This document shows, piece after piece, positions 17,548-57,291 of a stretch of DNA of 64,000 nt. The DNA is from Alphaproteobacteria bacterium (GTDB lineage: Bacteria > Pseudomonadota > Alphaproteobacteria > JAEULC01), in the NCBI GenBank assembly GCA_023150455.1, contig JAKLKW010000026.1, positions 41,982 through 105,981 of the forward strand. The letters are read 5' to 3'. Below the pieces are notes generated by a model. It did no database searches, had not been told where the DNA came from, and saw only the letters and a program-made list of their open reading frames with translations. A program made the position numbers and the translations under genes. The first letter of the stretch is position 1; every line of letters starts with the position of its first letter.

Positions 17548-18732
17548 CAGCGTATCTCCGCCACCGCGCGGACGAAGCGGTCGATCTCGTCCTCGCTGTT
17601 GTAATAGTGGACCGAGGCGCGCACGACCATGTCGAGCCGGCGCCCGGTCATGTCGATCAGCGTCGAGAAGCGGCTGGAGGTCGTCACATTGATGCGCTGG
17701 GCCGCCAGCGCCTGCCGGATCGCGGCGGGCTCAACGTCGCGCTTCGTGAACGTCACGATGCCGCACCTGATCGTGCCGAGATCGCGCAGCTCCACGCCGG
17801 AAAGGTCGCCCAGCCCGGCCCTGAGGCGCGCGGCGAGCGAACCGATGCGCGCCCAGATCGCGTCCATGCCCCAGGAGAGCGCGTAGTCGACCGCGACGCC
17901 GAGGCCGATCTTGGCGGCGACGTTGCCCTCCCAGTTCTCGAAGCGGCGCGCGTCCGGTCGGACCTCGTAGCGGTCCTTCGCCACCCATTTGGCCGCGTGC
18001 AGATCGAGGAAGGGCGGCTCCAGCCGGTCGAGGAAGTCGCGGCGCACGTAAAGGAAGCCGGTGCCGCGCGGCCCGCGCAGGTACTTGCGGCCCGTGGCCG
18101 AGAGCATGTCGCAGCCGATTTGCCGCACGTCGACGGGCAGCTGGCCGACCGACTGGCAGGCGTCGAGCAGGTAGGGGATGCCGTGGGCGCGCGCGAGGCG
18201 GCCGATGGCCTCGGCCGGGTTGACGAGGCCGCCATTGGTCGGCACGTGCGTGACCGCGATCAGCCGGACGCGGCCGTCGATCATCCGTTCGAGCCGGGCG
18301 ACGTCGAGCTGGCCGCTGGCGTCGTTCGGCACCACCTCGACCACGGCGCCGGTCTGCCGCGCCACCTGCAGGAAGGCAATGTAGTTGCTGGCGTACTCCG
18401 ACACCGCCGTCAGGATGCGGTCGCCGGCCTGGAAGCCGATGCCGTAGAACGCCATGTCCCAGGCGCGCGTCGCGTTCTCGACGATCGCGATCTCGTCGCG
18501 CTCGGCGCCGATCAGCGCCGCGACGGCGTCGTAGGCGCGCTCCACCGCCGGGGCGGCCCGGTCGGCGGCCTCGTAGCCGCCGATGCGGCCTTCGAGGTCG
18601 ATATGCTCCTTCACGGCGTCGAGCACCGGCGCCGGCGTGAGCGCCATGCCGGCGTTGTTGAGATGCAGCACGTGGGCGGTGCCCGGCGTCTCGGCGCGGG
18701 CGCGGGCAAGATCGAAGCTCATGCGGATGTCA
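17547..18732 (-). CDS. Class V aminotransferase (cysteine desulfurase / selenocysteine lyase-like, PLP-dependent)
   Basis: AT-V fold signatures and a TGRK lysine region. The internal start is MSFDLARA; the upstream part of the 569-aa ORF is P/R-rich frame noise. Confidence 0.75.
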
Positions 18733-18823
18733 CGTCCCCTCGGGCGATTGGCAGCCGCATTGTCGCTATAATCGCCGGCTTGGCTAGTGCGCGCCGGACC
18801 GCGCGCGGAAGCATGGAGGAAGC

Positions 18824-19204
18824 GTGAGCGACCTCGACCTGTTGGCGGCGATCCGCCGCGGCGACGTCCAGGCAGCCGGGCGGGCCCTCGAGGGCGGGGC
18901 CAGCCCGAGGGCGCGGTCGGCGACGGGCGACTCGGCGATCGTGCTGGCGGCGGCGAGCGGTGAGACGGCGCTGGTCGAGCTGCTGCTCGACAACGGCGCC
19001 CCCGTCGACGACGCGGGCGAGGCCGGCAACACCGCCCTGATGCAGGCGGCGGCGCAGGGTCAGTCGATGATGGTGAAGCTCTTGCTGTCGCGCGGCGCCG
19101 ATGGCGGCCACGCCAATCGCTGGGGGCTGGGGCCGGCGGACTGGGCGCGGTGGGCCAAGGACGCGCCGGACCTGTTGGCGGCAATCCAGGCGAAGCGGTC
19201 CTGA
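18824..19204 (+). CDS. Ankyrin-repeat protein (about 3 repeats)
   Basis: GxTALMQAAAQG...VKLLLSRGAD repeat signatures. It has a GTG start. Confidence 0.6.
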   Translation: MSDLDLLAAIRRGDVQAAGRALEGGASPRARSATGDSAIVLAAASGETALVELLLDNGAPVDDAGEAGNTALMQAAAQGQSMMVKLLLSRGADGGHANRWGLGPADWARWAKDAPDLLAAIQAKRS

Positions 19205-19893
19205 CCGATGCGCGGGCGCAGCACGGTGACGCCGGGCGCCTGCTTGCGCGCCGCACGCTCGCGGTATTCGGCCATCACCGTCTCCTGGTGCTTGCGGTCA
19301 CGGTCGATGCGCGCCTGGGTCCAAGCGTCGAACACCCGCTTGCGATAGGCCTGGCCCAGCTCGGGCGTGGCGGAGTGGTAGTTGGCGACGGCGAGCGACC
19401 ACGAGCGCCTGGCATCGCGCAGCTCCTTCAGGAAGCGCGCGCCATAGGCGACGTTGGTCTCGGGATCGAAGGCTTCCTCGAGGCTGGCAAAGGCGTCGGG
19501 ATGGTGCAGCAGGCTGATCTGCATGCAGCCGACGTCGATGTTGCGCTCGCCGCGTGCCTGTAGCCGGCGCACCTCGGCAATGGCCTGGGCCTTGGTCTCG
19601 TAGTAGCGGCCGTCACCGGCATTGTTGACCGTCCACGGCCAGGCAATTCTTTCCCCCAGCTCGGGGTGGTGCCGGCCCGATTCGGTCATGGCGACCGCGG
19701 CCAGGAGCTGGGCGGGGATGTTGCCGGCGCGCTCGGCGCGGTCGATGGCGCGCCCGCAGGGGTCGTCCGATGTACGGATAAGCGGCCCGAATATCTCGGC
19801 TTTTCCGGCCAGGGGGGCCGCCAGCACCAGCGCCAGGGCCAGGGTCATCGGGGCCAAAACGGTGCGGGGGCGGAAACCGGCAAATCCAGCCAT
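19060..19893 (-). CDS. Secreted lytic transglycosylase (SLT domain)
   Basis: Signal peptide, then an SLT catalytic region (AMTESG...). An AGGAGA SD lies upstream of the ATG. Its 3' end overlaps the ankyrin gene by 145 nt. Confidence 0.7.
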   Translation of the reverse strand: MAGFAGFRPRTVLAPMTLALALVLAAPLAGKAEIFGPLIRTSDDPCGRAIDRAERAGNIPAQLLAAVAMTESGRHHPELGERIAWPWTVNNAGDGRYYETKAQAIAEVRRLQARGERNIDVGCMQISLLHHPDAFASLEEAFDPETNVAYGARFLKELRDARRSWSLAVANYHSATPELGQAYRKRVFDAWTQARIDRDRKHQETVMAEYRERAARKQAPGVTVLRPRIGQDRFAWIAANRSGASLAHRAQSAGPSPQRLAWPPSAPRDSKSFTIID

Positions 19894-20119
19894 GCGACTC
19901 TCCTTGCCGGCGACGGGTCGCAACGGCCATGCCAATGACGTCCATATGCGCCGACAGAATGCGCAGAAACGGTGCATGGCATGCCCCGGTCTTGTGCATC
20001 GCAGCAAATAAGGGGCACGACGGGCGAACGGATTTTGGCCGATTTGTGGTAAGATCATGAAATCTGGAAATTATTCCGATTCTGTTTGCATTACGTCTGC
20101 ATCAGAGCCATATTGTGCA

Positions 20120-20217
20120 ACGCCGAATGAAGGCTGCGCGGCAGGTTCCTGTCGTGCTCTTCTTGGGCGTTTCCTCCCTAAACTCGGGCCGTGTCTTTCG
20201 ACACGGCCCGTTTTTTT
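20120..20217 (+). ncRNA. Candidate sRNA of about 100 nt, with a promoter-like TTGCAT/TATTGT upstream and a strong intrinsic terminator
   Basis: The terminator (GGGCCGTGTC-tttc-GACACGGCCC followed by GTTTTTTT at 20186-20217) is the hardest evidence. No + strand CDS precedes it. The body contains a UUCCUCCC motif. Confidence 0.35.
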
Positions 20218-20277
20218 CATATGTAGGCGAACAGTTTAAGCCGAATCGACGGGCGCGTAGACGGGCGGCGCGGCGGG

Positions 20278-20868
20278 TCAGCGCTCGGGCGGGCTGTCGG
20301 CGCCGGGGCCGAGCGGGCGCTGCATCATCAGCACGTCGACCCAGCGGCCGAACTTCCAGCCGACGGCGCGCAGCAGCGCGCATTCCTTGAAGCCCAGTGC
20401 CGCATGCAGACTGGCCGAGGCGGCGTTGTCGTAGCCGCCGCCGATCACGGCGATCATCTGGCGCCGTCCGGCGGCGGTGCAGCGCTCGACCAGCGTGGCG
20501 AGCAGGGCGCGGCCGACGCCGCGACCTTCCATACCCGGGGCGACATAGACCGAGTTCTCGACCGTGTTGCGGTAGGCGGGACGCGGCCGGAAGGCGCCGG
20601 CGTAGGCGTAGCCGACGACCTTGCCGTCGAGCACCGCCACGAGATAGGGCAGGCCGAGATCGACCACGGCGCGATAGCGCTTCTCCAGCTCATCGAGCGG
20701 CGGGGACGTCTCCTCGAACGAGCCGAGCCCGGTCAGCACGTGATGGCCGTAGATCGCCTGCACCGCCGCGAGATCAGCCGGCGCGGCGTCGCGCACCAGC
20801 GGCGCGGGGTGCGGCGCGGTCGATATCGCTTCGTCGGGGCGGGTGGTGTCGCGCATCGGCGATGTCAC
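20278..20868 (-). CDS. GNAT-family N-acetyltransferase (phosphinothricin acetyltransferase-like)
   Basis: GNAT motif region VAPGMEGRGVGRALL. Its start overlaps the hutG-like stop by 4 nt. Confidence 0.75.
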   Translation of the reverse strand: MTSPMRDTTRPDEAISTAPHPAPLVRDAAPADLAAVQAIYGHHVLTGLGSFEETSPPLDELEKRYRAVVDLGLPYLVAVLDGKVVGYAYAGAFRPRPAYRNTVENSVYVAPGMEGRGVGRALLATLVERCTAAGRRQMIAVIGGGYDNAASASLHAALGFKECALLRAVGWKFGRWVDVLMMQRPLGPGADSPPER

Positions 20869-21755
20869 GCGGCTGCCAGCAGGCGGCGGTCGATCGTGCC
20901 GAGCGCTGCCATCACCTTGGCCATGTCGCGGGTCAGGCCGAGGATCGCGTCCTTGCGGGTGATCGTCTCCTCGTCCATGTAGAGCGCGCGATTGATCTCG
21001 ATCTGCAGCGCGTGCACTCCGCGCCGCGGGCGCCCGTAATTCTGGGTCGTGAAGCCGCCGGAATACGGGTTGTTGCGTGTCACGGCGTAGCCGAGCTGGC
21101 GCAAGGTGCGCTCCGCCGTGTCGGTGACGATCGGCGCGCAGGACGCTCCGTGCACGTCGCCCAGGATCACGTCGACGCGGGCCCTGCCGGCATCGGTGTC
21201 CATCGGGCCGCCGACCGAAGGCATGGAGTGGCCGTCGATCAACAGGCAGCAGCCGAAGGCCTGGCGCGTGTCGGCGATCAGCCGCCGCAGCGCGCCGTGG
21301 TAGGGCTGGTACAGCGCCTGGATGCGCTCCAGCGCCTCGGCCAGGCGCAGCTTGTCGCGATAGATGTCGCGGCCGGTCGCGACCACGCGTGCGATGGTGC
21401 CGAGGCCTGCGGCCACGCGCGGCGAGCGCGTGTTGGCGTAGCCCGGTAGGGTGTCCTCGAACATCGCCGGGTCCAGCTCGTAGGGCTCGCGGTTGGGATC
21501 GATATAGGCGCGGGGAAACAGCGCGCGCAGCAACGGGGCGCCGAGGCTGGGCGCGGCGCCGAATATCTCGTCGATGAAGCTGTCCTCCGAGCGCCTGAGC
21601 GCGACCGGGTCAAGGCGCGAGGCGGCGACGAACTCGGCCGGGTAATGCGCCCCGCTATGCGGCGAGGCGACAACCAGCGGCACAGCTTGGCGCGGCGGCG
21701 CCAACACCTCGAACGGCGGCGGCTTGACGCCGACCAATGCGGCCGCTGTGTCCAT
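20865..21755 (-). CDS. N-formylglutamate amidohydrolase family protein
   Basis: FGase-family signature (SPHSG...IDGHSM). Confidence 0.7.
   Translation of the reverse strand: MDTAAALVGVKPPPFEVLAPPRQAVPLVVASPHSGAHYPAEFVAASRLDPVALRRSEDSFIDEIFGAAPSLGAPLLRALFPRAYIDPNREPYELDPAMFEDTLPGYANTRSPRVAAGLGTIARVVATGRDIYRDKLRLAEALERIQALYQPYHGALRRLIADTRQAFGCCLLIDGHSMPSVGGPMDTDAGRARVDVILGDVHGASCAPIVTDTAERTLRQLGYAVTRNNPYSGGFTTQNYGRPRRGVHALQIEINRALYMDEETITRKDAILGLTRDMAKVMAALGTIDRRLLAAA

Positions 21756-21939: not shown

Positions 21940-22014
<75 letters not shown>

Positions 22015-24006: not shown

Positions 24007-24081
<75 letters not shown>

Positions 24082-56290: not shown

Positions 56291-57291
<1,001 letters not shown>

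Follow-up and report, generated by a model that had tools for sequence, protein, structure and literature searches.

The 384-bp gap between an SLT-domain gene and a GNAT gene of an alphaproteobacterial contig raises the question of whether it holds a small RNA (sRNA) gene and, if so, of which kind. The window analysed here is the whole 64-kb stretch of DNA around this gap, and all positions are counted from its first letter. An earlier note, made from the sequence alone, measured the gap correctly (19894–20277, from the SLT start at 19893 to the GNAT stop at 20278) and proposed that it carries a base-pairing sRNA with its own promoter and an intrinsic terminator. The candidate is a real sRNA gene of the αr8 family (MmgR/SuhB/SisA, Rfam RF00519). 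The family is already known, and the element is therefore not new. We hold with high confidence that the region from about 20121 to 20217 on the plus strand encodes a trans-acting αr8 sRNA with its own sigma-70-type promoter and intrinsic terminator.

Family membership and genomic neighbourhood

According to the Rfam scan, RF00519 (suhB, Makes More Granules Regulator RNA) matches 20149–20224 on the plus strand. The match scores 59.7 bits (gathering score 41), and its E-value over all 64 kb is 9e-10. It spans the full model (positions 1–77 of 77), and besides two tRNAs RF00519 is the sole Rfam family detected in the window. A custom covariance model (CM) matches 20117–20219 at 121 bits. The predicted αr8-family sRNA is about 97 nt long (20121–20217, plus strand), and its 3' end lies in the U-run. 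Shuffled versions of a 137-nt stretch reach −37.8 ± 3.6 kcal/mol, whereas the real sequence reaches −59 kcal/mol (z = −6.0); none of 200 shuffles folds as well. Family membership is thus directly supported here.

Published αr8 RNAs are recognized by their internal 10-mer 5'-UUUCCUCCCU-3', which is single-stranded, by the weak hairpin that directly precedes it and by a Rho-independent terminator; in most species there is one gene copy, adjoining the gene of N-formylglutamate amidohydrolase (FGase) (PMC12559287). All four are found at the window locus. The anti-Shine-Dalgarno-like tract reported in the earlier note, UUCCUCCC at 20171–20178, lies within an exact UUUCCUCCCU at 20170–20179. Its CCUCCC tract is the validated seed of the family (PMC12559287), which, together with the full-length match above threshold, bears out the reading as a base-pairing sRNA. 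Going by record titles, the host is an alphaproteobacterium outside the Rickettsiales: the FGase loci most similar to its own (96% and 85% identity) are titled uncultured Rhodospirillaceae or Rhodospirillales. The characterized members of the family are MmgR of Sinorhizobium meliloti, SuhB of Sphingopyxis granuli and SisA-D of Caulobacter crescentus. The reasoning from the sequence alone was sound; what it could not show is that the element belongs to a known, named family.

No second αr8 copy was found in the 64-kb window by the Rfam scan and a 10-mer search, and no sponge complementary to the 10-mer was found in the same 64 kb. The sole near-match to the 10-mer (56852–56861, minus strand) differs from it at one position, as chance alone would allow.

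Three minus-strand genes surround the element. The SLT-domain lytic transglycosylase gene (19060–19893; Pfam PF01464) is divergent from the sRNA promoter. The GNAT acetyltransferase gene (20278–20868; Pfam PF13420/PF00583) is convergent with the sRNA and is located between the sRNA and the FGase gene (20865–21755; Pfam PF05013, E = 1.8e-75), which is the syntenic marker of αr8. The FGase gene is 650 nt from the sRNA on the opposite strand, with GNAT alone between them, and the association of FGase with αr8 is stated in PMC12559287. As had been noted, there is no plus-strand coding sequence upstream: the nearest is an ankyrin-repeat ORF ending at 19204, and the minus-strand SLT gene intervenes. 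This ankyrin ORF (18824–19204, plus strand; strong Pfam matches) runs towards the SLT gene, and the two share about 145 nt. A comparable overlap of about 130–140 nt is observed by tblastn in L001–L003, and it is unusually long for convergent genes.

For comparison, 45 related loci (L001 and onwards) were gathered using the FGase protein. They are mostly Rhodospirillaceae/Rhodospirillales metagenome-assembled genomes (MAGs) by title, and the closest is 96% identical. RF00519 matches at or above the gathering score are present in 18 of the 45 FGase loci, and the custom CM adds two, giving 20 of 45. All 20 copies are located just past the 3' end of FGase or of FGase plus GNAT, on the opposite strand, and the SLT gene is retained on the other side of the sRNA in many loci. 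GNAT lies between FGase and the sRNA in L001–L005, L007, L013–L016, L020, L031 and L033. No GNAT gene was detected between them in L006, L008, L009, L011, L012, L028 and L039, and the sRNA is nearer to FGase in these loci (42 nt in L006). Thus the synteny FGase–(GNAT)–αr8–SLT extends over many Rhodospirillales MAGs. The conservation and covariation check proposed in the earlier note gives a positive result, as the element is kept in 20 related loci and its stems covary.

An adjacent αr8 gene is absent from the other 25 of the 45 FGase loci, and no element combining CCUCCC with a terminator was found downstream of FGase in those 25. They include L017–L027, L029, L030, L032, L034–L038 and L040; L025, L026 and L034 keep both GNAT and SLT. 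Judging from these sequences, the sRNA appears to have been lost or relocated in such FGase lineages.

A tRNA-Val(GAC) gene (21940–22014) is located immediately upstream of FGase, and a tRNA is present at that position in most of the 45 loci. As the tRNA is conserved beside FGase, the conserved block is therefore tRNA–FGase–(GNAT)–αr8–SLT. The second tRNA of the window, tRNA-Gly(GCC) (24007–24081), is 2 kb beyond tRNA-Val(GAC). With regard to the record titles, L014 (titled Flavobacteriaceae MAG) is near-identical to L033 (titled Alphaproteobacteria) across FGase, GNAT and the αr8 gene, and FGase contigs are also titled Paceibacterota (L041) and Myxococcota (L044). The contigs of L014, L041 and L044 are probably mis-binned.

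Predicted promoter, PhaR-like box and 5' end

The −35/−10-like pair described in the earlier note is present in the gap. The −35 hexamer TTGCAT is located at 20086–20091 and the −10 hexamer CATATT at 20109–20114 (TATTGT at 20111–20116), both on the plus strand, with a spacer of 17 nt. Among the 18 aligned loci the TTG varies little, if at all, and the A at 20110 is the same in every one. The −10 variants at the same place in the relatives are CATATT, CATAAT, GATAAG, CTATAT and TATATT. The pattern TTGnnn-N17-cATAtt is kept in 18 of 18 loci aligned with upstream sequence, and the fixed 17-nt spacer supports the proposal of an own promoter, whose function we infer from this conservation. A generic scanner called no sigma-70 promoter in 18500–21500, because only 7 of 12 consensus positions match; given this null result, the promoter call rests on the conservation across relatives. 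The −10 ends exactly 55 nt before the 10-mer both in the window's clade and in the sequence-divergent L006 clade. The predicted start is therefore at about 20121, and the RNA would be about 97 nt long.

Between this predicted start and the weak hairpin of the family there is an extra hairpin, SL1 (20136–20157, plus strand), with 9 bp and the loop GUUC, identified from folds, relatives and covariation. The 36 nt of this interval form a hairpin in 15 of 15 distinct relatives, whose sequences there are unrelated. According to the per-sequence folds, the z-scores of the 5' hairpin range from −1.2 to −4.1 and are negative in all 15 distinct sequences. Compensatory changes are observed in five of the seven modelled pairs of SL1. 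The scanner listed 20136–20157 as a terminator; this candidate was rejected, as UCUUCUUGGG comes next and not a U-run.

A putative dyad resembling the PhaR/AniA box, TGCA-A-CGCC, is located at 20116–20124 and overlaps the predicted −10/+1 region. The corresponding putative operator sequence, TGCAACGCC, lies within 20100–20135. Of the 15 specified positions of the S. meliloti PhaR motif WNWDDNYGCRNYGCRNHHWNW, the 21-mer at 20110–20130 matches 14. The motif is a palindrome YGCR-N-YGCR with AT-rich arms, and the sole misfit is one purine of the second half-site, which is thus imperfect. Spanning the predicted start, ATTGTGCAACGCCGAATGA agrees at 15 of 19 positions with the PhaR site of S. meliloti mmgR that was verified by EMSA (PMC12542648). 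Five more distant loci, namely L007, L013, L014 (/L033), L015 and L016, have a perfect core, TGCAGCGCA or TGCAGTGCA, at the matching place in the alignment. In S. meliloti, PhaR binds the mmgR promoter in EMSA (PMC12542648). By analogy, these similarities suggest that the polyhydroxybutyrate (PHB)-sensing regulator PhaR may repress the window sRNA, as in S. meliloti. The recurrence of the box at the start site hints that the coupling of αr8 to PHB status is widespread.

The same box supports a different 5' end. The mapped transcription start site (TSS) of mmgR in S. meliloti is 13 nt after the PhaR box (PMC12542648). By collinearity of the two box regions, the start here would be at about 20141, and the product would be a 77-nt RNA without the 5' hairpin. 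This explanation retains the same αr8 sRNA in a shorter form of about 77 nt, starting at about 20141–20143 as in S. meliloti MmgR. On this view TTGCAT/CATATT and the 5' hairpin would lie outside the RNA, as DNA of the promoter or operator; alternatively, the long form could be processed to the short one. The lengths of the known RNAs agree with it: MmgR is 77 nt, and the SisA 10-mer contains C40 (PMC12559287), so that about 30–35 nt are 5' of the seed there, against 49 nt here. In addition, sm8 in S. meliloti gave a doublet of bands (PMC2573895). However, a −10-like hexamer for a start at about 20141 is absent from 20126–20136, and that stretch is GC-rich in the L006 clade. Neither the promoter pattern common to all 18 loci nor the 5' hairpin agrees with the short form: the hairpin is maintained through unrelated sequences with compensatory changes, which is expected of RNA and not of promoter DNA. 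We regard the shorter form as unlikely, whether as the primary product or as a product of processing. On the evidence of the promoter and the 5' hairpin, both conserved, we place the 5' end at about 20121, predicted to within 2 nt. It is favoured over one at about 20141, because there is no −10 element for the latter and because the 5' hairpin covaries.

Weak hairpin, seed and terminator

SL2 (20156–20168, plus strand) is the weak hairpin of the family, GCUC-UUCUU-GGGC, and corresponds to the first helix in the alignment with the Rfam model. In the relatives, 86.5% of its cells are paired. The variation is from G-C to G-U only, with no compensatory double changes. In the window's clade SL1 and SL2 have 2 nt in common, and SL2 can instead become part of a longer 5' helix. 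The minimum-energy (MFE) fold of the window RNA uses this extended helix, which takes up the 3' arm of SL2. Within 20120–20169, in the window's clade only, the 5' segment ACGCC...GAAGG is complementary to CUCUUC...GGGCGU, and in the MFE fold SL1 and the weak hairpin become a single long helix that reaches exactly as far as the 10-mer. Such a merged helix could be a clade-specific alternative structure, as modelled.

The chances are evenly balanced that the αr8 RNA of this Rhodospirillales lineage is a variant extended at its 5' end to about 97 nt, which has an additional conserved 5' hairpin and a PhaR-type operator directly on its start rather than between −35 and −10, and that, jointly with this, the 5' hairpin of the window's clade can rearrange with the weak hairpin into one long helix.

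The 10-mer UUUCCUCCCU at 20170–20179 (plus strand), the predicted anti-Shine-Dalgarno seed, is the only exact match in 64 kb. It is intact in 16 of the 18 aligned loci, and each of the other two has one substitution. It is unpaired in the MFE fold, with a mean unpaired probability of 0.996. The identical 10-mer is the experimentally validated seed of SisA (PMC12559287).

The Rho-independent terminator (20185–20217, plus strand) is identified from its sequence and from covariation. It consists of CGGGCCGTGTC-TTTC-GACACGGCCCG at 20185–20210, followed by T7 at 20211–20217. The earlier note had placed a GC-rich stem with a TTTC loop and a T-run on the plus strand, and this part stands; the stem has 11 bp (nine of them G-C pairs) rather than 10, and the T-run has 7 nt rather than 8. 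The distance of about 100 nt from promoter to stem needs correction, since the stem begins 71 nt after the −10 hexamer; 100 nt is the distance from the start of the interval that had been reported. Ten of the 11 terminator pairs show compensatory changes, and 95% of cells are paired.

Over all the stems, 92% of cells are paired and 15 of 22 pairs show compensatory double changes, in a model-guided alignment of 21 matches; these counts come from an alignment fitted to the custom CM and are thus biased towards the modelled structure. None of 500 shuffles reaches the observed covariation, and the values collapse when the partners are slid by 1–3 columns. Plain MAFFT with RNAalifold on the 18 RNA-only sequences did not recover the stems and gave only four pairs, all spurious, since the alignment shifted the terminator stems against one another. 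This procedure was replaced by the CM-guided alignment and per-sequence folds.

The location of the terminator permits an explanation with no sRNA gene at all, in which the hairpin is a (possibly bidirectional) terminator of the convergent GNAT–FGase operon, or the element is a cis-regulatory leader. A leader was the original suggestion for the 'suhB' motif, since the first description of RF00519 gave it an unknown or cis-regulatory role. For a terminator, the hairpin is 68 nt beyond the GNAT stop codon, and the terminator scan found no other terminator-like site for the GNAT–FGase operon. On the minus strand, however, the hairpin continues into AGUUUAGGGAGG and not into a U-run, and the mere terminator is rejected for this reason; furthermore, it would leave the invariant 10-mer and the conserved promoter unexplained. 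The cis-acting leader is rejected because there is no plus-strand gene downstream to control. Members of the family (MmgR, SuhB and SisA) have been shown experimentally to act in trans. We therefore consider the absence of an sRNA gene very improbable.

Less probable still is that the region encodes a small protein, from the 60-aa ORF (20057–20239, plus strand) or from the minus-strand ORFs (20071–20220 or 20102–20383): the frames are open on both strands and the plus-strand ORF is also intact in the 96%-identical L001, but in L002–L005 it has stop codons and 1–2-nt indels although the nucleotide sequence is conserved, there is no Pfam match, the GC content is 0.49–0.53 over 19950–20250 against about 0.70 in the flanks and the genome, and the most conserved block is the 10-mer with the stems, which show RNA-type compensatory changes. 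The atypical composition had been described correctly, and the doubt cast on the 60-aa ORF was justified. Coding potential was rejected for this ORF, whose frame survives solely in L001, and for the minus-strand ORFs, which behave like it. These results directly support the non-coding status of the element.

Predicted action and relation to known αr8 RNAs

The predicted RNA consists of the 5' hairpin, the weak second hairpin, the single-stranded 10-mer UUUCCUCCCU and the terminator hairpin. The most likely product of the gene is an RNA of about 97 nt (about 20121–20217) that would repress mRNAs by anti-Shine-Dalgarno pairing, a mechanism we infer from MmgR, SuhB and SisA. In the case of SisA, many mRNAs are repressed through the 10-mer, as demonstrated by compensatory mutations; the repression is Hfq-dependent and is countered by the sponge CrfA (PMC12559287). 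SuhB of Sphingopyxis binds the Shine-Dalgarno region of thnR, and loss of SuhB raises PHB. MmgR of S. meliloti likewise depends on Hfq and restricts the levels of PHB and phasin; NtrC activates it and AniA/PhaR represses it. By analogy with these RNAs, the 10-mer would pair with GGAGG-type Shine-Dalgarno regions of several mRNAs. This pairing, in which Hfq is probably involved, would block translation or destabilize the mRNA. The outcome may be a tuning of carbon and storage metabolism (PHB, phasins, transporters and catabolic regulators). The PhaR/AniA-like operator over the start site would in turn allow repression by the PHB-sensing regulator.

In the duplex target scan of the 64 kb, the top-ranking sites were either strong Shine-Dalgarno sequences of a generic kind or GC-rich artefacts. 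An ORF with an AMP-binding domain (12056–10263, minus strand), similar to acyl-CoA synthetases, has the Shine-Dalgarno sequence AAAGGGGAGGA located 6 nt before its ATG, with the scan match GGGGAGGA. It is the best plausible complement of the seed in the window and is indistinguishable from a generic strong Shine-Dalgarno sequence.

MmgR (Sm8/SmelC689/'suhB') of S. meliloti shares with the window element the full-length CM match, the UUUCCUCCCU core, and the weak hairpin followed by a Rho-independent terminator. In both cases the sRNA gene is opposite in strand to the two flanking genes (gene< sRNA> gene< for sm8; PMC2573895), and the promoter region contains a dyad of the PhaR/AniA type, putative in the window, with the 15/19 identity described above. 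They differ in that the window RNA is predicted to be about 97 nt long with an extra covarying 5' hairpin, whereas MmgR is 77 nt. The PhaR-like box of the window lies on −10/+1 and has the imperfect second half-site CGCC, whereas the box is at −33 to −13 in S. meliloti. In addition, GNAT separates the window sRNA from FGase, and the host belongs to an uncultured Rhodospirillaceae lineage.

SisA of C. crescentus (with SisB-D) has the same 10-mer anti-Shine-Dalgarno seed, a weak hairpin 5' of the seed and a terminator, and adjoins FGase (PMC12559287). The mechanism is probably also the same by analogy, namely Hfq-assisted repression at 5' UTRs. One αr8 copy is seen in the 64-kb window, whereas Caulobacter has four, and the SisA seed is at about +32 to +43, whereas the window seed is predicted at about +50 to +59. 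SuhB of Sphingopyxis granuli TFA is an MmgR homologue of the same family, and the window RNA would act in the same way. Unlike the window element, SuhB is transcribed under a LysR-type regulator and has species-specific targets (tetralin genes).

The element is an instance of a well-characterized, Rfam-catalogued sRNA family in its canonical genomic context, and the understanding of the αr8 family is unchanged by these results. They annotate a conserved riboregulator in an uncultured Rhodospirillaceae genome. They also add modest comparative detail for a known family, namely a conserved promoter geometry and a 5' hairpin maintained by compensatory change. If the 97-nt variant is true, a lineage-specific function could come with the extra domain, for instance in RNA stability, as a second site of interaction or in the recognition of a sponge, and the control of αr8 by PHB status would be ancestral to several alphaproteobacterial orders.
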